This document shows positions 9,536 to 64,000 of a DNA stretch of 64,000 nucleotides, piece by piece. The position numbers and the translations under genes were made by a program. Source of the DNA: a virus. Lineage: Duplodnaviria > Caudoviricetes. The DNA lies in the IMG/VR virus record IMGVR_UViG_3300009424_000011, positions 32,805 through 96,804 of that record; one strand, written 5' to 3'. Under the pieces are notes generated by a model. It was not told where the DNA came from, made no database searches, and was given only the letters and a program-made list of their open reading frames with translations. Each line of letters opens with the position of its first letter. The stretch's first letter is position 1.

Positions 9536-10197
9536 TCCTTGATGAAGTCGGAGTTCTTGAACGCCGGGTGGTTGCGGACTTCCTGTCGATCGACAAGAGG
9601 CCAGTGAGTCTCAGGCAAGAGGTGGTTCACCGAATTGCCTTTGAGGTTGTAGCGATCCCGGCTCAGGGAGACCTTCACGAAGGTCCGCATCCCAGCCTCG
9701 AATCCGGTGGGTGATCTGTGCAGAACCGTGTTGTCCAGACGGAGCAAGTGCTTGTCCGGGTAGGTGCGGAGACCTACGTGGTCGAAGGCTTCGGCATAGC
9801 GGCCGATCTTTGCCATCTGGCGCAACGACTCGTCGCAGTCCTCGGACAGCATCCAGCGGTTTTGCTGGATGAGAAACACCGTCGGGGCCCGGTCAGACCA
9901 GATGTAGTTCACATCATCCGTCCCGTAGCCATCGATGTGCCAGCCGGGTCGGTTGCCGATGTATCCACCTTCCACCCAGAGTGTCTTCGCGGTCAGATAG
10001 ACGTAGCTGTCCATCCATCGGTCCGGATCGTCAGCGCGCACAGCCGAAAGGATGGGGTCGAACTGTCTGAGGTTATGTGGCACGAGCGCCAGCATATTCC
10101 CCGGTTCGGACACCGGAAGATACATCCAGAACATCATCTCGCTGGGTGTGAGAGCTACCAGTCCGAGGTCCTTGGGAGGAGCGCCAGCGGGTTTCAC
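9532..10197 (-). CDS. putative 2-oxoglutarate/Fe(II)-dependent dioxygenase-fold protein
   Basis: RPGWHIDG (HxD), a distal VLHRS His and RTFVKVS (Arg). Confidence 0.6.
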   Translation of the reverse strand: MKPAGAPPKDLGLVALTPSEMMFWMYLPVSEPGNMLALVPHNLRQFDPILSAVRADDPDRWMDSYVYLTAKTLWVEGGYIGNRPGWHIDGYGTDDVNYIWSDRAPTVFLIQQNRWMLSEDCDESLRQMAKIGRYAEAFDHVGLRTYPDKHLLRLDNTVLHRSPTGFEAGMRTFVKVSLSRDRYNLKGNSVNHLLPETHWPLVDRQEVRNHPAFKNSDFIKD

Positions 10198-40787: not shown

Positions 40788-42581
40788 TTACAGTGCAGTA
40801 ATCGGAGCGGTGGACGAGAAGCGATCGATCTGCACCATGCAGGCCGTGGTCGCGTCGCGGAAGGCGCTGAACTCCAGCGACTCCATGACATCCTGATCGA
40901 GGCCGCCCGGTGCGATCGGATCGCTGGTGACCTTGAATGCTGGGATGGTGAAGTAGTAGGTGTTCTTGTCCTGATCGATGATCGGGAAGGTGAGGCTGAC
41001 CGTCTCGTGGTTGATGAAGCGATCATACATTTCACCGTCGGCGAAGTAGGCTTCGATCGTGCCAGTGAGGTTCAGACGGCCAGCAGCGATGCCGACCGGG
41101 AACTTCGAGCCGATGGCCTGCTGGTTGCGCAGGTTGCCTTCGATCGAGAACTGGATCGAGTTGATCGCGGTTGCCTGTTCGACACCGTTCACGGTCAGAG
41201 CGCCGACGTTCGCAGTCGCCGAAACGACTTCGGTTGCCGGGGCTTCGAGCGCGGTATAAGCAGCGCCAGTCAGCTTCTCGGTCGAGGCGCGCTTGGTAGC
41301 GCGGCCCATGAGAGTGGACTGACCGGTGACGATCGAGCCGGCAGCGACTTCCATTTCGATACCACCGCAACGCAGGCCGTCCACGGTGAAGAACTGGCTC
41401 ACGTCTTGGAAGCCGGTTTCGATCGATGCCGATTGCGGCGTAATGTCGGCGCTGTTGCCCGGATTGCGGAGCATCGAGCCCTTGATCGTGATCGGGCCAC
41501 CAGCAGCGATTGCCGGGACAGCGCGATCCAGAACGAGGGTGTCATCGGTCAGCGAAACGATGGTGTAGAAGCCGCCGTCCGTTGCCGAGCCACCAGTGAA
41601 GTCAACAACCGCGAGGGTTGCCGCGTCTTCGGTCAGGACGCCGCCGACCTTGAGGAGGTTGCGAACCGTAACGACGCCCAGTGCCGAAGTGGCCGAGAGA
41701 GCAACGGTTCCGGTCGGGCGCAGCGCGTTGATTGCAGCCGCCAGATTGGTTGCGGTTTCGGTGTCGTCCGCGCCGATGTCGAAATCGAGGTCGGCTTCCA
41801 GAGTAACGGTATCAACGCCGTCAGACAGCGTGACAGTATCACCGGCGACAACAGTGTTGGCCGTGATGGTTCCGGTCTCGTAGCCGATGCCTTCGACGAA
41901 GATGCGCTGACCGGTCTTCAACTGACCAGCAGCGATCGCAGCAGCAAACGGGTTAGCGCCTTCACCGTCGATGGTGTTCGGCGAGTTACCGAAACGAAGG
42001 GTGGTCGCACGCAGGATGATGACATCGTTTGCGTCGGCGACAGTTGTGTTCGGAGAACCGGCTTCAACCACCAGCGAAGTGCCAGTGACCACGATGTCGG
42101 TGTTTCCACCCGCGAACGCGACGCTGCTGATCTGGAGATAGTCGTTGTTCGACGGGTTCACGAAACCGCTGGTCTTGATACGACGGCCGACAGTGAAGTA
42201 GGCTGCCACATCAGCGCCGCTGATGCGGACGGTGTTGTTGGCTGTGATCGAGACAGTCTTACCACGGAACACGTCCCAGTCCATCGGACGCGACCACGCA
42301 CCCATGAGGGTGCGTTGGAAGTCGAGGTCGGTCGTGCCGGCTGCAAATTCCCAAGCGATCTCGCCGCCCGACATTGCAGCGGTTTCGATGACCGAGGAGA
42401 TCATGCGGTCGTCCCGGATTTCCTCCGACTCAACGGTCTCCTTCGAGGCCGTGATCGAGGACGTGCGGAAACGACGGGCGCGGGTAACACCTGCTGCCGG
42501 GGTCTCGCCCCACGCGTTGTTGGATTCGATGATCTCGCGGAGCGAAGCGCGGTTGCTATCGGCGAGCAGCTTGTTTGCCAT
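40788..42581 (-). CDS. major tail tube protein (with inserted Ig-like/extra domain)
   Basis: ESEEIRDDR...GGEIAWE, SIETGF.DV.QF...G, I.G.IEAYF...YD.F pattern of phage tail tubes. Confidence 0.85.
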   Translation of the reverse strand: MANKLLADSNRASLREIIESNNAWGETPAAGVTRARRFRTSSITASKETVESEEIRDDRMISSVIETAAMSGGEIAWEFAAGTTDLDFQRTLMGAWSRPMDWDVFRGKTVSITANNTVRISGADVAAYFTVGRRIKTSGFVNPSNNDYLQISSVAFAGGNTDIVVTGTSLVVEAGSPNTTVADANDVIILRATTLRFGNSPNTIDGEGANPFAAAIAAGQLKTGQRIFVEGIGYETGTITANTVVAGDTVTLSDGVDTVTLEADLDFDIGADDTETATNLAAAINALRPTGTVALSATSALGVVTVRNLLKVGGVLTEDAATLAVVDFTGGSATDGGFYTIVSLTDDTLVLDRAVPAIAAGGPITIKGSMLRNPGNSADITPQSASIETGFQDVSQFFTVDGLRCGGIEMEVAAGSIVTGQSTLMGRATKRASTEKLTGAAYTALEAPATEVVSATANVGALTVNGVEQATAINSIQFSIEGNLRNQQAIGSKFPVGIAAGRLNLTGTIEAYFADGEMYDRFINHETVSLTFPIIDQDKNTYYFTIPAFKVTSDPIAPGGLDQDVMESLEFSAFRDATTACMVQIDRFSSTAPITAL

Positions 42582-42661
42582 TTTGGAATTGCCCTTCTCA
42601 GTTATGGTGGAGTGATGCGTCTAAACGCAGCCCCATCCAAAGGGGCGGAATTAAGACGCCA

Positions 42662-42725
42662 ATGGTAAACGAAAATGGTTAACGTGTCAAGCGAGAATGT
42701 CGTTCACGCAGCCATAATGTCGGTG
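42662..42725 (-). promoter_or_regulatory. tail tube promoter with two upstream boxes and a TTAACCAT in the spacer
   Basis: CACCGACATT...GAACGACATT-CTCGC-TTGACA-CGTTAACCATTTTCGTT-TACCAT. Confidence 0.6.
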
Positions 42726-46117: not shown

Positions 46118-47044
46118 TTAGCGAACGATCGCCGCGTTGGTGATGCCCCAGATGCGGGCCACTGCCTTGCCGTGCATGACGGCCATGGCAATCAGCCACT
46201 CGACGCGGGTGCGGTAAACCGGCATTGCGTCGATCTCGCCCAGATCGCGGACATCCATGATGCCGTTCTGGAGGCCGACGATCTTGCCGTCGCCCATGCT
46301 CACGACATAGACGGACTGGCTGACTGCACCACCGGCCGGGCCGGCTTCGTTGAAGTCGATGATCTTCTCGCCCTTGTCGTCGTCCTCAGTGATGAGGATC
46401 GGCAGGTCGTTGTAGAAGCCAACGCGACGGCCGAAGTCGTCCTTCGACCACTGGAGGTCACCGCCGACATCCTTGTCCTTTGCGGCCTGCGAGAGCAGGT
46501 TGCGCATACGCTTGGACATGATGATGTGGGTCGGATTGTCCACACGGTCGATCGCTTCGTCGAGCGTTGCGAGGCTCAGCGGGCCGTTTGCGGCCGGGCT
46601 GTCTTCGTCGGCTGCCAGAAGCTGGTAACCATTGACGCGGGCACGCAGACCATCGAACGAAACGCCATCGCTGGAGTCGCCGTTGATGAAGGCTGCGGTG
46701 ATCTTGGCACCCATTGCCTTGACCTGCATCGCTTCCTGACGGGTGCGAACACCGATGCCGTGCGTCTTGACGAGCGCGGTATCGACATCCAGTTCACCAC
46801 CGGCGATGCGGAGGGTTTCGGACTGCGGGTTGATCACGCCGATCGACGCGTCATAGCCTTGGTTGTAACCACGGAACCCGACGCTCGGCAGCTTCGCTTC
46901 CTGAGCGTAGCTATACGAGTTACCCGGAATATCCATGAGGGGCAGAGCGGCCATGAGATCGGTCGAGCCAGCGAACATCTCGATGATCGCCTGACGCTTG
47001 AGATCACCATCGACGAGCTTGGATGCCTCGTGCAGAGTGAGCAT
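46118..47044 (-). CDS. major capsid protein (HK97 fold)
   Basis: MLTL.EA.K...IIE.F...L...LP...LP..GFR..N..Y...GG..DVD...FDGL...RTRVEW pattern; AGGAG RBS. Confidence 0.88.
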   Translation of the reverse strand: MLTLHEASKLVDGDLKRQAIIEMFAGSTDLMAALPLMDIPGNSYSYAQEAKLPSVGFRGYNQGYDASIGVINPQSETLRIAGGELDVDTALVKTHGIGVRTRQEAMQVKAMGAKITAAFINGDSSDGVSFDGLRARVNGYQLLAADEDSPAANGPLSLATLDEAIDRVDNPTHIIMSKRMRNLLSQAAKDKDVGGDLQWSKDDFGRRVGFYNDLPILITEDDDKGEKIIDFNEAGPAGGAVSQSVYVVSMGDGKIVGLQNGIMDVRDLGEIDAMPVYRTRVEWLIAMAVMHGKAVARIWGITNAAIVR

Positions 47045-47169
47045 ATTGAAAAACTCCTAGAGAGTGGTGGTTGGTCGTCGGTAGCCTGAGGGGTTGATTG
47101 ACTAACCCCGACAGGCTACCAAAGCCGGGGTGATCTCGTGGAACTGACGACCGACCGAAGCCGTTAACC

Positions 47170-47958
47170 TTAACGACCCTTGTTGCCGTTGGTCTTGTTC
47201 GCCAGTTCAAGGCGTTGCATGGGCGAAAGCTGGGCGATCTGAGCAGCGGTCATGCCGCCAATCTTCTCTTCCTTGCCACCAGCAGCGCCGCCGCCGGTAT
47301 TGCCCTTGAAGTAGTGGGGCGCTTCGTCGCGGAGCTTGATGAGCCATTCGGAAACGCTCATCGGGCTTGCGCCGTCGCTGCCGTAAATCACGCTTTCGCC
47401 GCGCTTCGGAACCAGTTGTCCGTCCTCGATCTTGAAGAGACCGTAGGCACGCTGGAGAATGTCCGGCAGGGCCTGAGGCTGGACACCACTTTCCGGCACG
47501 ATGACGGCCGCTGTGACTTCCTTGTCGATAACAGTGCGGTTCAGTCGCTCGGTGAGCGTCTGGGCCTTCTGCTGGTATTCGGTCAGTTCCTTGCGGAGCG
47601 CCTTCGAGTTTTCGTCGTAGCCATCCCGGAGAACCTTGATGCGGTCCTGAACCGCAGATTCGATCTGGTCGTCGGTCTTGAGTTCCCCGTCCTTCACCCG
47701 CTGGGCGATGTCGCGGAGACCGTTGAGGTCATTGACGAAGGCATCGAGGTCTTCGCCGGCGATTTCCTGAACACGGGCGAGGGTCGGAGTGACCGCTTCG
47801 AGCCGCTTGCTCAGGTCGATATTCTTTTCACGAAACTCGACGAGCTTCTGGTTGGGGACGACATTGACGGCGAACTTGCCGGACTCTTCGTCAGCCTTGG
47901 CATACTCGCGGAGTTCCGCCGGAACTTCTTCGAGGGTGTTGAAATTGATAATGGGCAT
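47170..47958 (-). CDS. capsid scaffolding protein
   Basis: Coiled coil; LEEVP...Y...G.F...EFR..NI.L and APHYF...GGGA.G pattern; directly upstream of the capsid gene. Confidence 0.75.
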   Translation of the reverse strand: MPIINFNTLEEVPAELREYAKADEESGKFAVNVVPNQKLVEFREKNIDLSKRLEAVTPTLARVQEIAGEDLDAFVNDLNGLRDIAQRVKDGELKTDDQIESAVQDRIKVLRDGYDENSKALRKELTEYQQKAQTLTERLNRTVIDKEVTAAVIVPESGVQPQALPDILQRAYGLFKIEDGQLVPKRGESVIYGSDGASPMSVSEWLIKLRDEAPHYFKGNTGGGAAGGKEEKIGGMTAAQIAQLSPMQRLELANKTNGNKGR

Positions 47959-50564: not shown

Positions 50565-50608
50565 AACCTAACAGAATGTTCCACCACTGTCAAGTAATAA
50601 TGTCGGTG
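50565..50608 (-). promoter_or_regulatory. promoter upstream of the structured leader and portal
   Basis: CACCGACATT-ATTAC-TTGACA-N17-TAGGTT. Confidence 0.65.
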
Positions 50609-51114
50609 ATTCCGAAGCGGCGCTCCAACCGGTTCCATACATCCAGACGCTCCAGCACCGGGTTGCACCATTCAGTCAGGATGCAGTAGTTCCGGTTCTG
50701 GGGTGGTTTGTGGTGCCGGGCATGTGTTGGGATAGACTGGATGACACCAGTTTGTTGAATGACCTTGATCCAACCGGTGGACTTCTTGTGAGTCCAGTAG
50801 TGGACCTCGTTCTGCAACATCCCACCGGCGTAGGCAAACAGGAGAACAACAGACGGTCCGAACGCCAAGAGCCACAAACCGGCGGCTACACTGGCCGCCA
50901 CAAAGGTCGTCGAGTTGCGGTTGAAGAAACCATGAGCGGTGAACGCCAGCGGGTCAGCGTGGTGAACCCGGTTCGGGGCCCAGACTGACTTCTCCAGCCA
51001 ATCCCAGCGCGGCCGGGCAACCCTATCGAGATACCAATGAACAAAACCGCCCAGCAGATCAGCGATGATCCAGCCGACGACAGCTTGCCCGAGAAGGATG
51101 AAGAAGGTTTCCAT
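50590..51114 (-). CDS. CarF/TMEM189/FAD4-family membrane lipid desaturase
   Basis: ADLLGGFVHWYLD, RVHHADP, NEVHYWTH, THARHH and NYCILTEWCNPVLE histidine boxes; TM helices. Confidence 0.8.
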   Translation of the reverse strand: METFFILLGQAVVGWIIADLLGGFVHWYLDRVARPRWDWLEKSVWAPNRVHHADPLAFTAHGFFNRNSTTFVAASVAAGLWLLAFGPSVVLLFAYAGGMLQNEVHYWTHKKSTGWIKVIQQTGVIQSIPTHARHHKPPQNRNYCILTEWCNPVLERLDVWNRLERRFGITDIIT

Positions 51115-53700: not shown

Positions 53701-54059
53701 TCTCCGTTCGCTTTCGATGTCCCTTTATCGCAGGGATTCGTTACCAAATCAATAACAAAATGAATTATTTTGTTAGTTTGTTTTTCCACTACTTAGAACG
53801 TGGCGGGCACTTCTACGCAATGAGTCATTTGGTTGACGATACGCAAGCCCGAGTCGTTACCACGTCCACAAGCTACCATGCCGAGCCCGTAGTCTGCCCC
53901 AGCGCGGGTTTCATAGCTACCAAGGCATTCGCTGTTGTTTGCGGTGTCAATGATCTTGAACATGGTCTTGTCTCCGTTCGCTTTCGATGTCCCTTTATCG
54001 CAGGGATTCGTTACCAAATCAATAACAAAATGAATTAGTTTGTGAGTTTGTTTTTCCAC
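53701..54059. repeat. 89-bp direct repeat (53701-53789 and 53971-54059) containing promoter and RBS
   Basis: First 67 bp identical; 2 mismatches overall. Confidence 0.9.
53793..53963 (-). CDS. early hypothetical protein (56 aa)
   Basis: MFKIIDTANNSECLGSYETRAG...; GGAGA RBS. Confidence 0.65.
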   Translation of the reverse strand: MFKIIDTANNSECLGSYETRAGADYGLGMVACGRGNDSGLRIVNQMTHCVEVPATF

Positions 54060-54061
54060 CT

Positions 54062-54187
54062 CGTGCGCGCCTAGGCAGGCACGCGCACACATGCACACAC
54101 ACACGCAGGCGCGCACACCCGCAGGCGCACGCGCCCGCACAGGCGCACGCACAGGCGCACACGCACGCACGCGCACACGCACGCATA
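54062..54187. repeat. alternating purine-pyrimidine (GCAC/GCGC/CACA) low-complexity tract
   Basis: GCACGCGCACACATGCACACACACACGCAGGCGCGCAC... Confidence 0.85.
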
Positions 54188-54257
54188 CCTAAAATGACCT
54201 TGATCCATAGCAGCCGAGAGCCGCGCACACAGCCTAGGCCGGGCAGGACAGAGTAGG

Positions 54258-54413
54258 TTAGGGTAGGGTGTCTAGGGTAGCCGTGGCGCTGGCAAGGGTG
54301 CTGCTGATAAGGTCGCTCGCACACAGGCCCACATAGAGCGCCAGTCCTGCACCATAGAGGCGCACAGCGAACCCCGAAATAAGGCCCCCGATAATCGCTT
54401 CCATGGTGATCAT
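54258..54413 (-). CDS. small hydrophobic early protein (51 aa, not in the ORF track)
   Basis: MITMEAIIGGLISGFAVRLYGAGLALYVGLCASDL...; GGAGA RBS; own promoter module. Confidence 0.6.
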   Translation of the reverse strand: MITMEAIIGGLISGFAVRLYGAGLALYVGLCASDLISSTLASATATLDTLP

Positions 54414-54551
54414 GTCATTTCTCCGTTTGCGGTGATTCGGTTTTTCCAGAAAAGGCCGATTCGGTCAAGCACTTTTTCCAGAAAATCCCGATTTTTAGGG
54501 TTAACGAATTTCGCCGTTTTATTAAGGTTAACCAGAGATTACCGCCAAAGA

Positions 54552-54580
54552 AAAAGCCCGATTCGGCGAATCGGGCTTTT
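54552..54580 (-). terminator. intrinsic terminator
   Basis: AAAAGCCCGATTCG-G-CGAATCGGGCTTTT; the stem itself contains GANTC sites. Confidence 0.75.
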
Positions 54581-54586
54581 CCGGGA

Positions 54587-54862
54587 TCAGGCTTCCGGGG
54601 CTTTCACCGGATAGGCCCGAATCATCGGGCACAAACGGCCCTCGGCATTTTCCGGGTAAAATTCGGTTCGCACCAGATCGGCGACCTTATCGGCAGCTTC
54701 CCAGCTTTCAGCGCTGAAACGAATCGTTTTCGGCTGATTCGACCAGCCGAAGTGATAGGCGAGTCGGGGATTGTGAAGGCCGCACTTTTTCGCGGCGGCA
54801 AGCAGTTTTTCCGGATTCTGCCCGTCGCTGATGCCCGAGCCTGTCAGTTCGAATCTTTCCAT
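54587..54862 (-). CDS. early hypothetical protein
   Basis: GGAG RBS; own promoter module. Confidence 0.7.
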   Translation of the reverse strand: MERFELTGSGISDGQNPEKLLAAAKKCGLHNPRLAYHFGWSNQPKTIRFSAESWEAADKVADLVRTEFYPENAEGRLCPMIRAYPVKAPEA

Positions 54863-55050
54863 GGTCTGGCTCCGTTTCCAGTGATTCGGGTCTAAACGCG
54901 CCAGCCGATTCGGTCAAGCACTTTTTCCACTTTGATGGTTAACGATTTCGGCCGATCGGTTAAGGTTAACCTGAATTTACGATTTTGGAGCCCGGCCCCT
55001 TTTCTCAGTGAATTAGGGTCCCGGCCCCTGTTGTCAGGGGCCGGTTCCTG

Positions 55051-55248
55051 TCAGGCCATCAATTCGGCGAGTAATTCATCATCGCTCAGCTTGTCAGTCC
55101 CAGACTCGGCGTTCATCCGGGCGATTTCTGCGAAACAAGCCTTGCGGTGGGCGCGGGCCTTGCGCTTGGCGGCAGGCGTTCCGAATGCAAGGATCATGTC
55201 GCAAAGGTCGAGGTCGGCGGCCATTGCTTGTTCGGTGGAATTGCTCAT
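55051..55248 (-). CDS. early hypothetical protein
   Basis: GGAGACAGACC-ATG; own promoter module. Confidence 0.7.
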   Translation of the reverse strand: MSNSTEQAMAADLDLCDMILAFGTPAAKRKARAHRKACFAEIARMNAESGTDKLSDDELLAELMA

Positions 55249-55404
55249 GGTCTGTCTCCGTTTCCAGTGATTCGGGTCTAAACATACCAGCCGATTCGGT
55301 CAAGCATTTTTTCCACTTTGATGGTTAACGAATTTAACCGTTTTGTTAACCTTAACACCCGGTTACCAGACAAAGAAAAGGGCGGGATTTCTCCCGCCCC
55401 TTTC

Positions 55405-55599
55405 TCAGATGATCCGGCGTCCGGTCTGTTGGATTTCCCGGCCATGTGCGGTGAAGCGCGGGCCGGTGTATTCGGTTGGGTTGGGGATATGCTTGCTTGC
55501 CTGTTCGGCGGCGTGAGCGGCGAGTTCGGCGCGGGCCTTGATGATTGCCACGGTGGCGGTGATCAGGAAGGCGATTGCGAGGATCAGGATGGTGGTCAT
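55405..55599 (-). CDS. early single-TM protein
   Basis: MTTILILAIAFLITATVAIIK...; GGAGA RBS. Confidence 0.65.
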   Translation of the reverse strand: MTTILILAIAFLITATVAIIKARAELAAHAAEQASKHIPNPTEYTGPRFTAHGREIQQTGRRII

Positions 55600-55666
55600 T
55601 TGCTTGTCTCCGTTTCGATGATTCGTTTTCGCATAGTCCATCGATTCGGTCAAGCACTTTTTCCAC

Positions 55667-55867
55667 CTAATAGACATATTCCTGATGAAAATCGCCGTTT
55701 TCGTCCGTCCAGTCTTGGCGAATATCGACGTGCAATTCTTCGATCTCGTCCGGCTCATAATGGCCGCGCTGATAGGCGAATGCCTCCCGCAAGGTGAGAA
55801 AGTGGGTGATGTCTTTTTCGCCTTCATATCCGGCGTTTTCCACGATAACGAATCGGCGGTCTGTCAT
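55667..55867 (-). CDS. early hypothetical acidic protein
   Basis: GGAGG RBS; coupled to the upstream gene. Confidence 0.65.
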   Translation of the reverse strand: MTDRRFVIVENAGYEGEKDITHFLTLREAFAYQRGHYEPDEIEELHVDIRQDWTDENGDFHQEYVY

Positions 55868-56028
55868 TGATCTTCCTCCCGGCGGATGGTCTGGCGGCGC
55901 TCTTCCATCTTACCTTGTGCGATGATGTCAGCCACGCATTGATTGACGTGGCGGCGGCGCTCTTCGCCCATGCGGCGTTGAACGATTGCCCGGTCGCGCT
56001 TGTGGCGATATTCTGCCAGCGTTTCCAT
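55864..56028 (-). CDS. early basic hypothetical protein
   Basis: METLAEYRHKRDRAIVQRR...; TAATG overlap. Confidence 0.55.
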   Translation of the reverse strand: METLAEYRHKRDRAIVQRRMGEERRRHVNQCVADIIAQGKMEERRQTIRREEDQ

Positions 56029-56270
56029 TAGCGGCGATTCTTGCGATAGCGGTGGGGATACTGGCGGCGCAAGTTTGCGTCGTCGTGCAGCGCCAGCATC
56101 GACAAGGCGGGCAGGCAAAGCCCGCACATAGCAAGGGCGTTAAAGAGCATCTGGGTGACGGTCCGGGCCTCAGGGGCGAGCGGGGTTAGGTCAATGTTCG
56201 CTGTCATGTAGAAAGCACCATAACCAGCTAAAAGGCCGAGGGCCATAAGGGTTGCAGAAAGAAAACGCAT
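56028..56270 (-). CDS. early two-TM membrane protein
   Basis: GGAGACAGACC-ATG; two hydrophobic helices. Confidence 0.65.
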   Translation of the reverse strand: MRFLSATLMALGLLAGYGAFYMTANIDLTPLAPEARTVTQMLFNALAMCGLCLPALSMLALHDDANLRRQYPHRYRKNRR

Positions 56271-56393
56271 GGTCTGTCTCCGTTGTTTGTGATTCGGGTC
56301 TAAGGTGATTCGCTGATTCGGTCAAGCACTTTTTCCAGCTAATTGGTTAACTAATTCGGCTGATCTGTTAACCTTAACACTGGGTTAAGGCCA

Positions 56394-56418
56394 AAAGAAA
56401 AGGGGCCGAAGCCCCTCC
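56394..56418 (-). terminator. recurrent terminator AGGGGC-TTCG-GCCCCT-(C/T)TTT (similar copies near 57321, 58131, 59290, 62291, 63611)
   Basis: UUCG hairpin (UUUG in the 62291 copy) plus U tract on the - strand. Confidence 0.8.
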
Positions 56419-56420
56419 CC

Positions 56421-56633
56421 TTATGCTGCCCGGTAGTGTTGCAGGCGAGTGATCCGAAGCCCCTGCTGTCCCGAGCGATCCAGCGACTTACGCCAGCCAG
56501 CAAACTCTTCGCTTGTGATGTTGTGCAGGCTGCAAACGTCTTCGAGGGTGGTGGTGCCGTTGTCCACATCGGCGATGATGGCGGCTTTGCGCTTTGCGGT
56601 GTAGCGAGCGGTGGTCTTGATCTTGATCTTCAT
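56421..56633 (-). CDS. sciP: SciP / DUF1153-family CtrA inhibitor homologue
   Basis: RYTAKRKAAIIADVDNGTTTLEDVCSLHNITSEEFAGWRKSLDRSGQQGLRITRLQHYR matches the DUF1153 pattern RW..RRKA.VV.AV..G......AC..Y.L..EEF..W...I.R.G..GLR.TR.Q.YR (recalled, not searched). Confidence 0.8.
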   Translation of the reverse strand: MKIKIKTTARYTAKRKAAIIADVDNGTTTLEDVCSLHNITSEEFAGWRKSLDRSGQQGLRITRLQHYRAA

Positions 56634-56753
56634 TGTGTGTCTCCGTTGCTGTTGATTCGTTTCTAGGATGGTTAACTGATTCGGTCAAGCACTTTTTCCA
56701 CTTTATTCTTAATTCGCGTTAACCTTAACAAATTCATCAATTCCGTTAAGGAA

Positions 56754-56972
56754 TTAGCGCTTTCGCGCCAATCCCCTCGCGGTCAGGGCTGCTGCCAGCC
56801 GAGTCCAGTCGTCAACGGTGTTGTGCCAAGGGCCGATGTTGAGAGCCCGAATCATGTTGTTGAAAGGCACGGTGCCGACTTGGCGGACGTAGTTTGCGGC
56901 TTGGCGATCAATTTCCTCCTCCGAGGCTCCAGCCGCGATTGCCTTGGCGATGGCATCTTTCTTGCTGATCAT
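56754..56972 (-). CDS. early hypothetical protein
   Basis: ATGA overlap; GGAG RBS. Confidence 0.65.
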   Translation of the reverse strand: MISKKDAIAKAIAAGASEEEIDRQAANYVRQVGTVPFNNMIRALNIGPWHNTVDDWTRLAAALTARGLARKR

Positions 56973-57130
56973 GCCGCGATCTCCACGATGATGAACGTGA
57001 CGGGCCCAGCATAGGCCACGGAAAGGATTTCTTCGCCTTCCACTGCCAGCACGTTTGCGGCGATGAAAGCGGCGTTGATGTGATTGGCTTCGACCTTGTA
57101 GGTCCGCAGGGTGGTCTTGACTTCGAACAT
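56969..57130 (-). CDS. early hypothetical protein (53 aa, not in the ORF track)
   Basis: MFEVKTTLRTYKVEANHINAAFIAA...; AGGAGA RBS. Confidence 0.6.
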   Translation of the reverse strand: MFEVKTTLRTYKVEANHINAAFIAANVLAVEGEEILSVAYAGPVTFIIVEIAA

Positions 57131-57337
57131 AGCCTGTCTCCTGTGTGAGTTACCGGGCGAGCCTTGCTGCTGCTCTGCCAGTCAGTAGGTGCCGCCCGGT
57201 GATTCGGGTCTAGGGCGATTCGCTGATTCGTGCAAGAACTTTTTCCACTTCAATTTCACTTTGATGGTTAACAACTTCGCCCGATCGGTTAACCTTAACG
57301 TGGGGTTACCGGGCAAAAAGAGAGGGGCCGAAGCCCC

Positions 57338-57682
57338 TCATTTCCAGCGCGGATGCGATCCGGGATCGACTCCAAGTTCTTCCATGATGAGGCGGCGAAT
57401 CCTGCTGTGTTCCGCATTCATCACCATGGAAAAATGAACGCCTGACACGTCGTCGCAGTCCCTGCCGCCGCGTAACGCTATTGCAATGTGATCAAGCCCC
57501 TTGAGAGCCCACCAGAGATGCATAAGAGCATCTTCCATGTCGAAGGGGTCCGACTTCTCTCCGGTCTCTTTCTCGCGCTCTTTGAGGCGACAGAATTGCG
57601 AAGCGGCTATGCCGATGATGCGAGCAGCAAAGGGCTCGATCTGGGCCGAGTCGAAAGTCACGGGGCGGATGCGGTCGCTCAT
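57338..57682 (-). CDS. early hypothetical protein
   Basis: Coupled ORF ending at a terminator. Confidence 0.65.
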   Translation of the reverse strand: MSDRIRPVTFDSAQIEPFAARIIGIAASQFCRLKEREKETGEKSDPFDMEDALMHLWWALKGLDHIAIALRGGRDCDDVSGVHFSMVMNAEHSRIRRLIMEELGVDPGSHPRWK

Positions 57683-57861
57683 GCTGCCATGCTCCAGCGG
57701 TCGCGCTCATACAGACGGGCGATTTCCTCAGCGCCCGAGCGGGTCGAGTCGCATCCGAGCCAATCACCACAGAAGCGGGCAACCCATTGCTGCGTCGCAC
57801 GTCCGCACCATTCGAGGCGCACGCTATAGCGGGAGTCGAGGGTGTTGCGAGCGCGGCTCAT
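57679..57861 (-). CDS. early hypothetical protein
   Basis: ATGA overlap; YSVRLEWCG...WVARFCGDWLG. Confidence 0.6.
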   Translation of the reverse strand: MSRARNTLDSRYSVRLEWCGRATQQWVARFCGDWLGCDSTRSGAEEIARLYERDRWSMAA

Positions 57862-57989
57862 GCCGCCACTCCCCGATGCTTGGGGTTGCGGCGGAAAGAG
57901 CCCTTGCCTTTACGAGCGCGAACCTTGCGAGGGGCGAGGTGAGCGCTGGCGAGCGAGGCGGCAATGGGATTCTTGCGGATGTTTTGCAT
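57858..57989 (-). CDS. arfA: ArfA-like alternative ribosome-rescue factor (43 aa, not in the ORF track)
   Basis: MQNIRKNPIAASLASAHLAPRKVRARKGKGSFRRNPKHRGVAA; N.I.A.L...R.....KGKGS(Y/F).R..KH with ArfA spacing; GGAGA RBS; first gene behind a promoter module. Confidence 0.7.
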   Translation of the reverse strand: MQNIRKNPIAASLASAHLAPRKVRARKGKGSFRRNPKHRGVAA

Positions 57990-58151
57990 GATCTGTCTCC
58001 GATTGATGATTCGTTTTCGCACGAGTCACCGATTCGGTCAAGCACTTTTTCCACTTTGATAGTTAACCCCAAACGTCAATTTGTTAACCATATTCGTTAA
58101 GGTTAACAAATTTCACCGGGCAAAAAGAAAGAGGGGCCGAAGCCCCTCCCC

Positions 58152-58256
58152 TCAAACCTTGGCCTTAGCGCGCTGGCGCGCTTGCCGGTAAGACACCGCC
58201 GAGATGATCCCGGAAAAGGTGTTGTTGATGTAAACGTGGTAGGTGTTGATCTGCAT
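58152..58256 (-). CDS. 34-aa early peptide (not in the ORF track)
   Basis: MQINTYHVYINNTFSGIISAVSYRQARQRAKAKV; GGAGG RBS; own promoter and terminator. Confidence 0.6.
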   Translation of the reverse strand: MQINTYHVYINNTFSGIISAVSYRQARQRAKAKV

Positions 58257-58368
58257 GACTGCCTCCGTTGCTGTTGATTCGTTTCTAGGCGAACCAACCG
58301 ATTCGGTCAAGCACTTTTTCCACTAATTACAAAAAAAAAAGTTTGGTGAGGGACCTAAGCCCCTCGCC

Positions 58369-58635
58369 TTAGTCGTCTGCCAGCTTTCCAACGTAGCAAT
58401 ACGAATTGTATTGTTCCGGGTGAATTTCGCCGTCCTTACACAGCATGTCCGACCAGTTGCTAAATTCTTCATTGATAGCAACCGAATCGTTTTCGCCGTA
58501 GTGTGCGATCACATCGGGAAGCACTTCTTCGTCAAAGCGCTTGGAAAGCTCCTCTTCGCTGGCAATCTGGCCGTTGTCCTCGGCGTAGAGTTCCACCATT
58601 TCGAGGGTGTCCACGCGATCCCAGAAGCCAGCCAT
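58369..58635 (-). CDS. early acidic hypothetical protein
   Basis: MAGFWDRVD...NWSDMLCKDGEI...; TAATG overlap. Confidence 0.65.
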   Translation of the reverse strand: MAGFWDRVDTLEMVELYAEDNGQIASEEELSKRFDEEVLPDVIAHYGENDSVAINEEFSNWSDMLCKDGEIHPEQYNSYCYVGKLADD

Positions 58636-58721
58636 TAGCGGCGGCCCTTTGCGATCCACGAGGAAAGAATGGCGATGCGCGCACGCTTGGCGGCAAGGCG
58701 GCGTTTCTGGTGTCGGCTCAT
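58635..58721 (-). CDS. 28-aa basic early peptide (not in the ORF track)
   Basis: MSRHQKRRLAAKRARIAILSSWIAKGRR; GGAGA RBS. Confidence 0.5.
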   Translation of the reverse strand: MSRHQKRRLAAKRARIAILSSWIAKGRR

Positions 58722-58888
58722 AGTCTTTCTCCGTCCGCTTGATTGCGGTGATTCGTTAGTGCCAGTCTAAGCCGATTCGGTCAAGCAGTTTTTCCACTTA
58801 CTTTTCACTTTGATGGTTAACAAATCCCGGCCGACCGTTAACCTTAACAAACCGTTACCAGCCAAGAGGCGGGCCGAAGCCCGCTCCC

Positions 58889-58981
58889 TCAATAGAGATG
58901 CGATTCGCATTCAGGTGAAACAGGGTCGCCCCAATCGCAATCCAGTTCCTTGATCTGGCTGTCCAACCATTTACCATTCGG
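58889..58981 (-). pseudogene. 5'-truncated gene remnant between an intact promoter and terminator
   Basis: The frame PNGKWLDSQIKELDCDWGDPVSPECESHLY* has no RBS or start and begins right at the promoter's CCGAAT. Confidence 0.4.
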
Positions 58982-59210
58982 GTATGGACCGATTCGCTGA
59001 TTCGGTCAAGCACTATTTCCACTTTGATGGTTAACAAAATCAGCCAATCTGTTAACCATATTCCTTAACGGATTCGGCCGCCGGCGTTAACCTTAACAGA
59101 TTGGTCAGTTTCGTTAACCATCTGCTGGTGGGGAGCGTGGGGCTCGGTCGGCTGGTTCGGTCGGTCGGTCCGGGCTCCTGCAAAATGGCGGCGATCATGA
59201 AAATCGAAAT

Positions 59211-59272
59211 GATCCAAACCCAAAACCGGGGCGATCCAAAGTCGCGTCGATCCAAAGCGGCGGTGATCCAAA
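59211..59272. repeat. four GATCCAAA direct repeats
   Basis: At 59211, 59233, 59249 and 59265. Confidence 0.75.
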
Positions 59273-59310
59273 ACGACCAAAAAGCAAAGAGGGGCCGAAG
59301 CCCCTCTCCC

Positions 59311-59586
59311 TTAGTCGCCTTGATAGTCCGGTGCAGCTTCATAGACGAAGTTGGCTTCCGCCCGCCGGATTAGTTCGGCTGTGTTCCAGCCTCTTTCGTG
59401 GGCCACATGGAGCAAATCACCGATAAGGTCTTGGATGGCCGTGTAGTCGTCACCCTCACCTTCTTCGCAGTCGGCGCATTGCGCTTCAAGCGTCGAGTAA
59501 GGCCGTCCGCCATAGGTTTCGATGGTGAAGGTATCGAGGGCGTTCTTTGCCCAGTCGATCCGGGATTGATTGGCTTCGTGCATCAT
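59311..59586 (-). CDS. early hypothetical protein
   Basis: AIQDLIGDLLHVA...A..NF..E motif; coupled ORF. Confidence 0.65.
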   Translation of the reverse strand: MMHEANQSRIDWAKNALDTFTIETYGGRPYSTLEAQCADCEEGEGDDYTAIQDLIGDLLHVAHERGWNTAELIRRAEANFVYEAAPDYQGD

Positions 59587-59870
59587 CCTACATCCTCTTC
59601 TTCGCCGGTCAGTTCCTGCACCAGACAGACATAGGGGCGAGTCGCGCTGTGGTTGATGGTCATAGCAGGGCTCAGCGACAGTTTCGGCATATCAGGGCCA
59701 TAGGTTTCGCCGGTCACGAACAGGTCGTCTGCCACTTGCTGGCGGCGGTCGGAAAATTCGATGTAGTCCCCTTGAAGGGCGCTAATCTTTTCCCGTGCGT
59801 CGTCTTCGTTCTCAGCGATCACATAGGCGGTCGCGGTGATGCTAATGTCCGCATTGTAAAGTTTGGGCAT
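59583..59870 (-). CDS. early hypothetical protein
   Basis: MPKLYNADISITATAYVIAENEDDAREK...; AGGAGA RBS. Confidence 0.65.
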   Translation of the reverse strand: MPKLYNADISITATAYVIAENEDDAREKISALQGDYIEFSDRRQQVADDLFVTGETYGPDMPKLSLSPAMTINHSATRPYVCLVQELTGEEEDVG

Positions 59871-60087
59871 TGGTCTGTCTCCTGCGCTTGAGTGCGCCTG
59901 ATTCGTTTGCCCGTTCCCAGCGATTCGGTCAAGCACTTTTTCCACTTTAATAGTTAACTCATTTCATCAATTTGTTAACCTTAACGATTGGTTACCAATT
60001 TGGAAACCCGGCCCTTGTTCTCAGTGGGCCGGGTCCCGCCGGTGTTTGGAAACCCGGCCCCTGTTCTCAGGGTGCCGGGTCCCGGTA

Positions 60088-60393
60088 TTAGATGGCGTAG
60101 AGCCGGGCATGGAGCCCGGTCAAAGCTTCCACATCAATGGAGCCGCCCAGATCGTAATTGCTCTGACGTGCAACCCGCTTGCTGAGGTCTGCCATGGCCC
60201 CGCTCAGACGTTCCGCCGGTGTGCCCGAGCAGTAGTAGCCGCCACCAAAGTAATTGCGTTCGGTGCCTGTCTCCCGGTCGGTGTTGTAGTTGTGGACCAC
60301 AAACTCTTCGCGGTTTTCGTTGTAGCGCAGCGCGATGCCGCCCGGCATGGTCATGTCATCGCCACGGGTCGGGATTTCAAAAAGTGTCTTCAT
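60088..60393 (-). CDS. early hypothetical protein
   Basis: MKTLFEIPTRG...; AGGAGACAGACC-ATG. Confidence 0.65.
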   Translation of the reverse strand: MKTLFEIPTRGDDMTMPGGIALRYNENREEFVVHNYNTDRETGTERNYFGGGYYCSGTPAERLSGAMADLSKRVARQSNYDLGGSIDVEALTGLHARLYAI

Positions 60394-60562
60394 GGTCTGT
60401 CTCCTGTTTTCCGGTCTCTTCCGGTAAACCCTGATTCGCATTTTCCAGCGATTCGGTCAAGCACTTTTTCCACTTTGAAGAATGGTTAACACGATAGACC
60501 GATTCCGTTAACCTTAACGAATGTTTACACCCAAAGAAAAAGGCGGGTTGCCCCGCCTTTCC

Positions 60563-60961
60563 TTATTCGCCGAGATAGAACATTCCGACAAAGGCTTGCA
60601 GGGCCTCGTCTTCCTGTTCGGTGGTGTCATGGTAGGTGGTCCACGGCGTGCCCCAGTCCTGCCACTGCAAGAAAGGTTCGCCGCCGATGTCACCATATAC
60701 CCGCAAGGCCGGTCCGCCGGTCGAGAGCAGAATCGCGAACTCTTCCGGCTCCGATTCGCCGCCCGGTGCCCGCCATCCGTCGCGCACTTCCACGGAAAGC
60801 GGCATTTCCTGAATCCGGTTCTGCACGTCGTCCGGGTCGGTGAAGGTCTCCCCGTCGAACTCAGCCGATTCGGCTCCGTCGTTCAGGGCTTCCAGCGCGG
60901 CCATCGCCCCGACGATTGTCGAGAGCCAGCCCCGTGCATTGCTGATTGCGTGTTCGCTCAT
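60563..60961 (-). CDS. early acidic hypothetical protein
   Basis: MSEHAISNA...ILLSTGGPALRVYG...LQWQDWGTPW; GGAGA RBS. Confidence 0.7.
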   Translation of the reverse strand: MSEHAISNARGWLSTIVGAMAALEALNDGAESAEFDGETFTDPDDVQNRIQEMPLSVEVRDGWRAPGGESEPEEFAILLSTGGPALRVYGDIGGEPFLQWQDWGTPWTTYHDTTEQEDEALQAFVGMFYLGE

Positions 60962-61182
60962 TTGGTTTGTCTCCGTTGTTGGTGATCCCGGTCTAGGGTG
61001 ATTCGCTGTTTCGGTCAAGCACTTTTTCCACTTCAAAGTTGGTTAACAAGTGAAACACTTCTGTTAAGGTTAACGAACCGTTACCAGAAAGAAAAATGCC
61101 GGGGTGCATGATGCAACCCCGGCGGCGATGATCAGTAAGAACACACCCAGCAGCAGCCGGGCCACGGCGTCAAGGCAGCCCA

Positions 61183-61539
61183 TCAGCTTCGCAACTGTCG
61201 AGGGTCGCGATCCCAGCAAAAGATACGCGCAAGGCGTTCGTAGCTTGCCGGTGTGATGTTGTCCGACGGGTGCAGCGATTCATAGGTTTCAGCACCTGTT
61301 TGATAATCGCGGTCCGGGTCAATTGTGGAAAACCAGCGACCGGAATCCTCCATGCCATTACGGCCTAGGTATTGTTCAGCGTCCCGCAAGCTCCACTCCA
61401 AGTCTGAGTCATCCAGTTCATCGACCTGTTCGATTGATACCTTCATATGGAAGAAACGAGCCGGAAGGACGAATCCCCGTTCTTCGGCGTCGCCTTGTTC
61501 GGCGCTTTCCGGGGTCACAATTTCGTAAGTGATTCGCAT
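61183..61539 (-). CDS. early acidic hypothetical protein
   Basis: MRITYEIVTPESAEQGDAEERGF...; AGGAGA RBS. Confidence 0.7.
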   Translation of the reverse strand: MRITYEIVTPESAEQGDAEERGFVLPARFFHMKVSIEQVDELDDSDLEWSLRDAEQYLGRNGMEDSGRWFSTIDPDRDYQTGAETYESLHPSDNITPASYERLARIFCWDRDPRQLRS

Positions 61540-61709
61540 GGTCTGTCTCCTTTGTGGTGATTCGTTGGTGCCATTATCCACTGATTCGGTCAAGCACTTT
61601 TTCCACGATTAACAACCCACCCCTATTTGTTAAGGTTAACGGGTCCCTACCAGAAAAAGGTGAGGGGCAGGGCGACCAAACCCTGCCCCTCTGCCGAGAG
61701 CCCGAAGGC

Positions 61710-62156
61710 TCAATCGGCCGGAGTCAATTCCTTGTGGCGCTCTTTCTCCACGTATTCACGGGCGACAGCGAAGCCCATATATTCACGGGCCGTTTCCTGC
61801 CACGCCGCCCCAGCGATGAACGGGGTTTCGAGCGTCGCCACGTCTGCCTTGACGACAGCCTTGGCGTATTGATCCAGCGCCTGAAAGATGAAGGCGTGCA
61901 TCAACGGGGTCTTGCACCACGTCATGACCAGATTCATGAACTCGACATTGGTCAGCGCGGATTCCGGGTGCGGGTGCAACTCGCATCCATCAACCCGGTG
62001 GGTCTTGCCGTTCACGTCTGTGACGGTCCAGATGTCTTCGTTTTCATCAACACACCGCCCGATCGTGACGGTCTGCTTGGGGATGTAAACCCCAGTGGTC
62101 GATTCGCCGCCGTTGAAGGTCGTTTCGCGGCGCTTGAAAAGTGAGGCGTCTTGCAT
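61710..62156 (-). CDS. early hypothetical protein
   Basis: MQDASLFKRR...TNVEFM..VM; AAGGAGA RBS. Confidence 0.65.
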   Translation of the reverse strand: MQDASLFKRRETTFNGGESTTGVYIPKQTVTIGRCVDENEDIWTVTDVNGKTHRVDGCELHPHPESALTNVEFMNLVMTWCKTPLMHAFIFQALDQYAKAVVKADVATLETPFIAGAAWQETAREYMGFAVAREYVEKERHKELTPAD

Positions 62157-62312
62157 GGTCTTTCTCCTTCCGGCTCCGTGCCGGTGATTCGGTAATAGGC
62201 CGGTGATTCGATTCACGCAAGCACTTTCTCCATTTATTTTTCCAGTGGTTATCGGGCTGTTAACCTTAACGAATTTTTACAGACAAAAAGAGAGGGGCCA
62301 AAGCCCCTCCCC

Positions 62313-62564
62313 TCAGCGCGGGTTGGCCGGTCGAGAGCCGCCAACCCGTGGGAGATTGACCCCGTGCCATTCGAAGGCATGGGGCTCTTCCCGTGATCCG
62401 ACCGGGCTCGCGCCAGCTACCTTGAAGATCATTTCGGGCGTTTCGTCCGGCATTTCGTAATGGTCTCGCCAGACTTGAGTCACTTCCGCCACCGTGTTGG
62501 CAACCACGAACAAGTCGTAGTTTTCGCCGTTGAAGTGAGCAACGAAAAATAGCTTCATGTTCAA
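62313..62564 (-). CDS. early hypothetical protein
   Basis: GAGGAG RBS; coupled ORF. Confidence 0.6.
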   Translation of the reverse strand: MNMKLFFVAHFNGENYDLFVVANTVAEVTQVWRDHYEMPDETPEMIFKVAGASPVGSREEPHAFEWHGVNLPRVGGSRPANPR

Positions 62565-62833
62565 TACTCCTCGTGGCCGGTCCAGAACTCAGCGTGCCGT
62601 TCGCAGAGGGCGTTAAGCGCCTCTTTGTGATCATCCGAGAACCGATCCCAGAAGTCAGCGACCGAATCCATACCGTGGCAGGGCTCTTCCGATACTTCCG
62701 GCGACGGGGCCTTGTAATCGTTCACACAACCCCAAAGGGCGCTGTAAAGGCCGGGAACGGCGTCAACACCATCCCAACACTCAGCTACTTCGTCCGGGCG
62801 GATGTGGCTGAAATCTGCTGCTGCTTTGATCAT
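62561..62833 (-). CDS. early acidic hypothetical protein
   Basis: GGAGACAGACC RBS; own promoter module. Confidence 0.65.
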   Translation of the reverse strand: MIKAAADFSHIRPDEVAECWDGVDAVPGLYSALWGCVNDYKAPSPEVSEEPCHGMDSVADFWDRFSDDHKEALNALCERHAEFWTGHEEY

Positions 62834-63024
62834 TGGTCTGTCTCCGTTTCAACTGATTCGTTTCTAGGCGGTGCAAGCGATTTGGTCAAGAACTTTTTCC
62901 ACCGAACTCCACTTGTTGTTAACCTTAACGAATGGTTACCAAAAGAAAAGGGGCTGGCACGCGGCCAGCCCAGTTGCAAGGATAAGGAAGAGGACGCCCA
63001 CACCTAGGCGGGCGAGTGCGTCGA

Positions 63025-63474
63025 TCAATCCGATGTCTCGTCCTCCTCTTCCGGAACGTTCCACGTAATGAGGAACCACGCTTGACAGTATTCCTCGCAG
63101 CCGAAGCCGTCGTCCTCTTCGTCGCGGAAATCCAGCGAAGGATCGAAAGCTTTCCGGTCCAGTTCCATGGGATGAACGTCCACAAACGCACGCAGGATCG
63201 CTTTCCGAGCCTTGTCGTGGTCATAGCCAGCACGCTCACCAGCCAGATCGTAAGCCACCGAGTCGAACTCGCTCAGCAGTTCGTTCTTGACTTCACCGAT
63301 GGAAGTATCGCCGAAGACGATTGCGCCCAGCAGCAATTCGCCATCGCGATTGTGGTGGTCATTCAGAAAGGATGAAAGACAGGTATCGATATGAACGCAG
63401 GCGAAGCCGTCGTCCGATTCGTCGCGGCGAGCTTGTAGTTGCTCTTGCACCGAAGGTAGGAAAGGTGATGACAT
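63025..63474 (-). CDS. early acidic hypothetical protein
   Basis: MSSPFLPSVQEQ...; GGAGA RBS. Confidence 0.65.
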   Translation of the reverse strand: MSSPFLPSVQEQLQARRDESDDGFACVHIDTCLSSFLNDHHNRDGELLLGAIVFGDTSIGEVKNELLSEFDSVAYDLAGERAGYDHDKARKAILRAFVDVHPMELDRKAFDPSLDFRDEEDDGFGCEEYCQAWFLITWNVPEEEDETSD

Positions 63475-63633
63475 TTGGTCGTCTCCAAGCGCGGAATTGC
63501 GCTGAACTCTTGATAGGCGAGTCGTAGGTGATTCGCAAGCCAATTCGTCCAGAAGTTTTTCCACTTAGTTACCACGCTGTTAAGGTTAACGGCTGGTTAC
63601 CGGGCAAAAAGAGAGGGGCCGAAGCCCCTACTC

Positions 63634-63873
63634 TCAATCTTCGAAGTAGAGGTCCAGCAAGGCTTGTGCGGCCTCTTCCGTGGTGTCGAAGGGACCGCTC
63701 CAATCAGTGCAATCGAGATAGCCCGGAGCCGAGAGGCGTGCATAAATCTTGTCGTCTTCCAGATCGAGCCCGGCTTCCATAATCGCTTCCTGAATGTCCG
63801 CACCCATGTAGGATTGCGGCTTCATGAATGAGTCCTTGGCGGCTTCCTTGAGGCGTTCAATAGCTGTTTGCAT
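63634..63873 (-). CDS. early acidic hypothetical protein
   Basis: MQTAIERL...YARLSAPGYLDCTDWSGPFDT.EEA; GGAGACAGACC-ATG. Confidence 0.7.
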   Translation of the reverse strand: MQTAIERLKEAAKDSFMKPQSYMGADIQEAIMEAGLDLEDDKIYARLSAPGYLDCTDWSGPFDTTEEAAQALLDLYFED

Positions 63874-64000
63874 GGTCTGTCTCCGTTTCAACTGATTCGT
63901 TTCTAGGTGACCCAAGTGATTCGGTCAAGCACTTTTTCCACTTTGATGGTTAAGAAGATCGGCCGGCACGTTAACCTTAACGATAGGTTACCGGACAAAA

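Follow-up and report, generated by a model that had tools for sequence, protein, structure and literature searches.

The early-gene cassette array described here is carried by the IMG/VR virus record IMGVR_UViG_3300009424_000011 (Duplodnaviria; Caudoviricetes). The sequence analysed (the window; 64,000 nucleotides, positions 32,805 to 96,804 of the record) was the last 64 kb of this 96.8-kb virus contig, which had a CheckV completeness of ~57%. The array ran on the minus strand from position 64000 down to 54258, with short genes alternating with near-identical intergenic modules. Modules were defined by a scan of the whole contig plus in-register counts of the elements in each module (n=19). 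The 24-mer GTGGAAAAAGTGCTTGACCGAATC gave 17 matches at three or fewer mismatches, all on the minus strand between 54458 and 63941, versus 0 expected from shuffled sequences; scanning all 96.8 kb less strictly gave 18 copies plus a degenerate copy at 63563, and none elsewhere. The ~19 ordered minus-strand modules of an earlier reading of the bare sequence (the initial annotation) were thereby recovered, and 19 was a minimum number because the contig end cuts the array. Each module had been said to drive one to three genes, and this was correct for 18 of the 19 (~28 genes in total, mostly ORFans), while the module at 59020 was followed by no open reading frame (ORF).

The modules displayed the following order of elements: (i) a GC hairpin with a T-run (terminator), GGTAAC-N5-GTTAA-SS-TTAAC, and usually GTTAACCAT next; (ii) an A-rich UP-like tract GGAAAAAGTGC, TTGACC, GAATC immediately after it, and a variable spacer of ~12 nt; and (iii) a weak -10 (CTAGAA, CTAGAC, or worse), CGAATCA, and a conserved leader ending in GGAGACAGACC-ATG. 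The cassette was thus composed of a predicted terminator, a predicted sigma70-type promoter (A-rich UP-like tract, strong TTGACC -35, and weak non-canonical -10), and a Shine-Dalgarno (SD) leader. The 12-mer GTTAA-SS-TTAAC was present in 17 of the 19 modules, the full site [G/T]TAA-N7-TTAA in 13, and the upstream half-site TTAACYA in 11 (plus one within a promoter spacer); TTGACC was found in 15, GANTC at -29 in 16, two or more GANTC sites in the core in 17, at least one such site (in the -31 to -1 interval of the predicted promoter) in all 19, and SD plus ATG in 18. The central dinucleotide of the 12-mer was GG in about two-thirds and CC in about one-third of the cases, and the box was therefore present in both orientations; its preferred distances were -76, -88, -99, -111, and -123, and those of the half-site were -60 and -71. 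Information content was 0.45 bits/position in the spacer after the first GANTC versus ~1.75 in the UP-like tract and -35, and the module copies had therefore diverged where they were free to do so. An E. coli-type promoter scan missed all modules, because their -10 lacked the final T.

The closest records were two Erythrobacter phages: XM05, which matched parts of the array at ~80% identity, and vB_EliS-L02 (L02), described in print as the first CbK-like phage of Erythrobacter (PMC9127768). The layout of RuvC, terminase, and then a same-strand short-gene array was common to XM05, L02, and Sphingobium phage Lacusarx, and the corresponding array of Lacusarx is a ~10.5-kb terminal repeat (PMC5648845). 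The genes for PhoH, portal, major capsid, tail tube, and tape measure were located 3' of the array in the window, matching the start of the Lacusarx record. This synteny (terminase on one side, PhoH/structural module on the other) identified the array as a probable terminal-repeat early ('host-takeover') region; the phage itself would be a ΦCbK-like siphophage with an Erythrobacter-type sphingomonad as its host. The terminase-adjacent position was given by synteny only, with the contig ending inside the array. A low-complexity G/T/C-rich tract of ~170 nt (54040-54230, minus strand; GCGTG/GTGCGC words) lay between the last cassette gene and the PhoH module, and it may mark a boundary of the terminal repeat.

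Coordinates of the array, its 19 modules, and two of its genes in the window
Feature	Position	Strand	Remarks
Early-gene cassette array, probable terminal-repeat region	54258..64000	-	19 modules, ~28 short genes; synteny with Lacusarx, XM05, and L02; truncated by contig end
Module 1	63889..64000	-	Full site, 12-mer (GG), half-site, UP-like tract, TTGACC, GANTC at -29 and -5
Module 2	63513..63621	-	Degenerate -35 CTGGAC; GANTC at -17 and -6
Module 3	62850..62958	-	First GANTC lost (AAATC); -5 site retained
Module 4	62181..62289	-	TTGCGT; three GANTC
Module 5	61554..61662	-	12-mer CC; GANTC at -29 and -5
Module 6	60979..61087	-	Sole GANTC at -21
Module 7	60421..60529	-	GANTC at -29 and -12; long leader
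Module 8	59893..60001	-	
Module 9	58970..59125	-	Multiple TTAAC boxes, both orientations present; SD/ORF absent 3'; ~130-nt predicted transcript to terminator
Module 10	58745..58853	-	Half-site at -71; additional 11-nt A-tract unit
Module 11	58271..58340	-	Core promoter only, without TTAA boxes
Module 12	58002..58115	-	Drives ArfA-like gene and two further genes
Module 13	57196..57310	-	TTGCAC; three GANTC; 75-nt hairpin leader
Module 14	56649..56750	-	SciP-like gene promoter; TTAACCAT within -35/-10 spacer; no upstream terminator
Module 15	56286..56394	-	Perfect full site TTAA-N7-TTAA; three GANTC
Module 16	55614..55670	-	Core promoter only; abuts preceding stop codon
Module 17	55264..55372	-	
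Module 18	54878..54986	-	
Module 19	54429..54540	-	Last module; 12-mer variant with TTAAT end
Short SciP-family (DUF1153) gene, 70 aa	56421..56633	-	Pfam E=6.5e-20; NF051866 67.7 bits
ArfA-like gene (alternative ribosome-rescue factor A), 43 aa	57858..57989	-	PF03889 30.8 bits (cut-off 25.5)

The predicted terminator-ended transcript of module 9 (58855-59020, minus strand; fold z = -1.4) is possibly a small RNA, and the 260 nt 5' of this module (59040-59300) were gene-free and contained tandem TTTGGATC words. The leader of the module at 57246 (57128-57205, minus strand) contained a stable hairpin (z = -2.2), and its sequence was kept in XM05 and L02 (L002 ~9893-9960; L003 ~12300); an Rfam scan gave nothing above the gathering score, and this leader had no match in it.

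Regulatory elements of the phage and regulators of the host

Motif scans against shuffled controls gave 42 matches of GTTAAGGTTAAC at two or fewer mismatches (1.7 expected) and 49 of GTTAACCAT at one or fewer (7.3 expected), nearly all of them within the array (54430-64000). The TTAA-type sites were intergenic and 5' of short genes annotated without function, and the high local density of TTAA-N7-TTAA/TTAACCAT sites was confined to one region, both as in terminal repeats of the ΦCbK type. CtrA sites in alphaproteobacterial phages had indeed been reported, as the initial annotation stated: in the ΦCbK-like cluster including Lacusarx, the terminal repeats are dense in predicted CtrA sites, which lie 5' of short unknown genes (Mascolo 2022, PMC9437464), and such CtrA-box-dense repeats are the 'lytic deferment' signature of these phages (PMC9437464). 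CtrA~P binds the ΦCbK gp005 and gp018 sites, which read TTAAC-N5-GTTAAC, and those promoters need CtrA; binding with a change in transcription has been demonstrated only for ΦCbK gp005/gp018, Delta_120, and Cp1R7A-A1 gp19 (PMC9437464). Other terminal-repeat promoters of ΦCbK had GGTAAC-N5-GTTAAC, the same form as the boxes in the window.

The array and the ΦCbK-like terminal repeats shared the phage group, the position (terminase on one side and PhoH/structural genes on the other), and short unknown genes each with 5' TTAA boxes, and the CtrA-box part is already published and not undescribed. As read from the sequence, the additions to the published repeat are as follows: (i) the boxes were located 60-125 bp 5' of a full UP/-35/-10 promoter, while the ΦCbK box replaces the -35; (ii) the core promoters contained a GANTC pair of the GcrA consensus, while those of ΦCbK did not, and the Mascolo paper did not detect it; and (iii) a truncated SciP-like gene was present in this sub-lineage only, unlike in the published ΦCbK-like repeats. 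Two sites outside the array were also recorded. A promoter-like TTGACA-N17-TACCAT (42640-42700, minus strand) lay 5' of the tail-tube gene (40788-42581) with GTTAACCAT and GTTTACCAT inside its spacer and -10, and putative CtrA binding there would be expected to repress this late gene. An exact GTTAAGGTTAAC (47163-47174) overlapped the stop codon that ends the gene at 47170-47958, ~120 nt 5' of the major capsid gene (46118-47044), and it was unaccompanied by a UP/-35/GANTC module.

GANTC had a density of 35/kb in the 60-nt promoter zones versus 2.9/kb in the phage body. It was mildly under-represented in the body (1-54000; 158 observed versus 182 expected under a third-order Markov model), with 241 observed versus 362 expected from dinucleotide shuffles across the whole window. 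Of the 40 zone sites, 38 fitted YGAKTCK (26% in the body and 25% by chance), the GcrA-preferred context named in the initial annotation, and 26 were CGAATCA, the exact reverse complement of the GcrA consensus TGATTCG (Haakonsen et al. 2015, PMC4647560); since the modules are repeats of one another, such counts do not represent independent events, and uneven conservation is the better evidence. The feature was also conserved in XM05 (at least 31 modules), L02 (~26 modules), and Lacusarx. Conservation among IMG/VR contigs was measured with an anchor that did not require GANTC: in ~25 contigs (about a dozen diverged lineages), the UP-like tracts were diverged, and TTGAC(C)-GAATC was kept in most promoters.

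The phage GANTC sites were located at -29 and -5, on either side of the -10, sometimes with a third copy. In the GcrA regulon, methylation sites likewise lie on both sides of the -10 (PMC4647560), and Caulobacter ctrA P1 has GANTC at -29/-28 (Zhou et al. 2015, PMC4287350). The window promoters resembled Caulobacter GcrA/CcrM sigma70 promoters in having GANTC less than 40 bp from the predicted start and, at offset positions, on both sides of the -10, in the TGATTCG heptamer, and in the -29 position of ctrA P1; every module had GANTC no more than 40 bp from its transcription start site (TSS), the TSS being predicted rather than mapped. In addition, the weak phage -10 would benefit from a factor promoting open-complex formation. 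They differed in being phage-borne, in having at least 19 repeats, in the position of the sites (about -27 and -3, or -29 and -5 as given above; -30 and -20 in Lacusarx), offset from the Caulobacter modes of ~-20 and +2 to +30, and in the probable sphingomonad host. The literature searches yielded no description of GANTC in early promoters of phages, and a GANTC pair around the -10 of nearly every promoter was apparently unreported until now.

One array gene had been called a SciP homologue, and its product was confirmed as a member of this family: the DUF1153/SciP hidden Markov model was its best match, and the SciP model was likewise best for all 51 sampled relatives. The protein lacked the N-terminal ~27 residues (70 aa versus ~90-100 aa in SciP) and covered positions 28-90 of the 90 in the NF051866 profile, with its score lying below the 100-bit cut-off. 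It had the conserved SciP core R..RRKA..V..G....E.C....L..EEF..W....DR.G..GLR.TR.Q.YR and shared 49% identity with SciP of Erythrobacter; the full-length relatives nearest to it all belonged to Sphingomonadales. The gene was present in XM05 and related metagenomic contigs; a single-protein search of genome contigs for it found nothing. TTAACCAT in the -35/-10 spacer was unique to the promoter of this gene among the modules; it was kept in a lineage with a 71%-identical protein and not in XM05, where the gene was second in its operon. With GANTC at -29 and a half-site in the core, this promoter had the layout of Caulobacter ctrA P1 (PMC4287350). The Caulobacter SciP DNA motif GCGNC, sought between the boxes by eye only, was not consistent in the window; the literature searches gave no paper reporting SciP contact residues, and PDB entries 2jrt and 2oa4 carried no functional data.

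The initial annotation presupposed a host having these regulators, and five of five genomes of Erythrobacteraceae, the inferred host family, encoded GcrA, a CcrM-like methylase, CtrA, and SciP: the methylase (one per genome) gave an end-to-end alignment with the CcrM model at 602 bits, the CtrA equivalog reached ~420 bits (cut-off, 350 bits), and SciP scored 140 bits. Neither a GcrA gene nor a PF01555 methylase was found in XM05, L02, and Lacusarx, which as complete relatives were used for this absence because the contig was only partially complete, nor in the contig of the window; ΦCbK encodes a GcrA.

The ccrM promoters of Erythrobacteraceae contained a TTAACCAT-type half-site, N20-33, and TTGAC-NNN-GAGTC-N6-GACTC-ACC. 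They resembled the phage promoters in the half-site, TTGAC, and two GANTC ~11 nt apart, the closest being Lacusarx TTGAC-GAATC-N5/6-GANTC, but they displayed G-GAGTC-C and G-GACTC-A as sites, other spacing, a DnaA-box-like TGTGGATAA, and further upstream GANTC. A looser grammar of the ccrM type gave 34 matches versus 4 control matches in 61 host genomes, mostly ccrM-type. No phage-like GANTC layout was found at the host ctrA and gcrA promoters, and no clear canonical CtrA full site was found in the upstream regions of host sciP. In the ccrM promoters, TGTGGATAA came directly after the GANTC pair, and three to four more GANTC lay upstream; several phage spacers had GTGGA-type words at a comparable place, e.g., AGTGGATAA at the module at 61604.

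Regulatory interpretation and alternatives

The best overall explanation, held here with about even confidence, would be that the early promoters of a ΦCbK-like terminal repeat are read by CtrA together with CcrM/GcrA and are subject to feedback from SciP. Host CtrA~P would probably act on the upstream GGTAAC-N5-GTTAA-SS-TTAAC and GTTAACCAT, modulating and most likely activating all early promoters, and expression would then be tied to the flagellated/piliated, CtrA-active state of the newly entered cell. The CGAATCR pair around the -10 might or might not, with equal likelihood, be methylated by host CcrM and read by GcrA, the sigma70 cofactor, which would offset the weak -10 via open-complex formation; since the phage encodes neither GcrA nor CcrM, promoter activity would follow the methylation of the phage DNA, incoming DNA being presumably methylated and replicated DNA under-methylated. 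A tentative and somewhat doubtful third step would be feedback of the truncated SciP-like early protein on CtrA-dependent transcription. An extended version is unlikely: the early promoters would be epigenetic sensors, active on CcrM-methylated incoming genomes and silent on under-methylated copies, combining an early-to-middle switch with CtrA-based sensing of the motile state and tuning by the mini-SciP.

A number of observations weigh against the combined CtrA and CcrM/GcrA explanation, and some of them favour a narrower one, rated as rather improbable, in which the array is a repeat of the ΦCbK type controlled by CtrA only, GAATC is a lineage-specific part of strong promoters (spacer, discriminator/initial transcribed sequence) with no role in methylation or GcrA binding, with the SciP-like gene as an unrelated accessory. 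Experiments support the CtrA precedent (ΦCbK), and GANTC is absent from the ΦCbK terminal-repeat promoters, so ΦCbK does without it; Mascolo et al. obtained no positional signal for GcrA, SciP, or DnaA matrices with Lacusarx in the set (PMC9437464); the middle base of the phage GANTC was almost always A and not any N, and CGAATC could therefore be the word of another factor; and the strict phage core TTGACCGANTC-N17-20-CGANTC was at chance level in hosts (1 of 61 host-family genomes), so that it was not copied from a common host promoter. The narrower explanation is opposed by the heptamer itself, which occurs twice per promoter (sometimes thrice) at fixed positions flanking the -10, equals the GcrA consensus, and stays while neighbouring positions drift; moreover, the second GANTC of Lacusarx (-19/-20) varied in its middle base (G, C, or A) with GA..TC constant, and host ccrM promoters likewise pair GANTC with TTGAC. 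The remaining unfavourable observations concern (i) the host side, where the ccrM-type grammar was rare in Sphingobium and Sphingomonas (1/5 genomes), the ccrM GANTC sites were outside the YGAKTCK context, and the Erythrobacter-type sphingomonad was itself an inferred host; and (ii) the boxes, which did not overlap the -35 of a complete sigma70 promoter, with a palindromic 12-mer in both orientations and 6 of the 19 modules without the full N7 site. Helical phasing of the 12-mer (pooled R ~0.6 at 11.5-12 bp) was only suggestive, since its significance was lost once duplicate distances were removed (p ~0.1 for distinct distances).

The palindromic form of GTTAA-SS-TTAAC and CGANTCG, together with the two orientations of the 12-mer, would also fit a dimeric helix-turn-helix (HTH) protein, and overlap with the core promoter at -29 and -5 is classic for repressors. 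CGAATCR and/or GTTAA-SS-TTAAC might accordingly be operators bound by an early/middle protein of the phage, possibly the SciP-like HTH, which would shut all early promoters at once; the many ORFans of the array offer further candidates. This is a decidedly improbable account: the SciP-like protein was the only recognisable DNA-binding protein of the array and was missing in L02 and Lacusarx, both of which retain every box, and the boxes take the same forms as host CtrA and GcrA words for which relatives provide experimental support. In T4-type phages, promoter-early stem-loops are repeated units of promoter plus stem-loop that flank small variable ORFs and mediate gene shuffling, and the cassettes resemble them in architecture, the comparison being on architecture only. 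The array could be viewed likewise as mobile cassettes, i.e., promoter-terminator units under concerted evolution that mediate gene shuffling and use sigma70 only: such units flank nearly every one to three genes, the genes are ORFans, and gene content differs among relatives while the cassettes are constant. However, information per position was very uneven within the cassette, and the boxes persisted across lineages with diverged UP-like tracts; such mobility would also be compatible with regulation and no true alternative, and as a replacement for regulation it is very improbable.

Under the preferred combination of CtrA and CcrM/GcrA, the place of SciP has to be reduced. The initial annotation had the region feed back through its own SciP, but the gene is truncated, scores below the cut-off, and is missing from L02, Lacusarx, and ΦCbK, and it is therefore better regarded as a lineage-restricted accessory. 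The initial interpretation is supported in part: the cis-elements were present as described, but outside Caulobacterales and Hyphomicrobiales (sphingomonads included), the role known for CtrA is in motility and not in control of the cell cycle (PMC9437464). For this reason, sensing of a motile, infectable cell state would be the more conservative reading, the 'cell-cycle logic gate' being hypothetical. The three-input combination that had been presented as undescribed likewise has to be divided, its CtrA part being published and its GANTC pair in phage early promoters being unreported in the literature searched.

A functional GANTC pair would make this, within that literature, the first phage tying its whole early programme to host CcrM/GcrA epigenetics; GcrA biology would then extend beyond Caulobacterales, and the missing GcrA gene in sphingomonad members of the ΦCbK group, compared to ΦCbK, would be explained. 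The system lends itself to experiments: both XM05 and vB_EliS-L02 are in culture together with their hosts, each genome offers 19-40 natural promoter variants, and ctrA is expected to be dispensable in sphingomonads.

Further genes in and near the array

The ArfA-like gene was kept in the arrays of related metagenomic contigs (L007-L009). Hydrophobic ORF tails (..LILATGLAAC.. at 62951-63024 and ..LIIAAGVASC.. at 61070-61183, minus strand) overlapped the terminator hairpins after cassette genes, and similar peptides were seen in XM05 and Lacusarx; they could be small membrane/lipobox-like peptides or a coincidence of the hairpin sequence. Amid the structural genes, a lipid desaturase/fatty-acid hydroxylase-like gene was located at 50590-51114 on the minus strand (PF10520, 117 bits).

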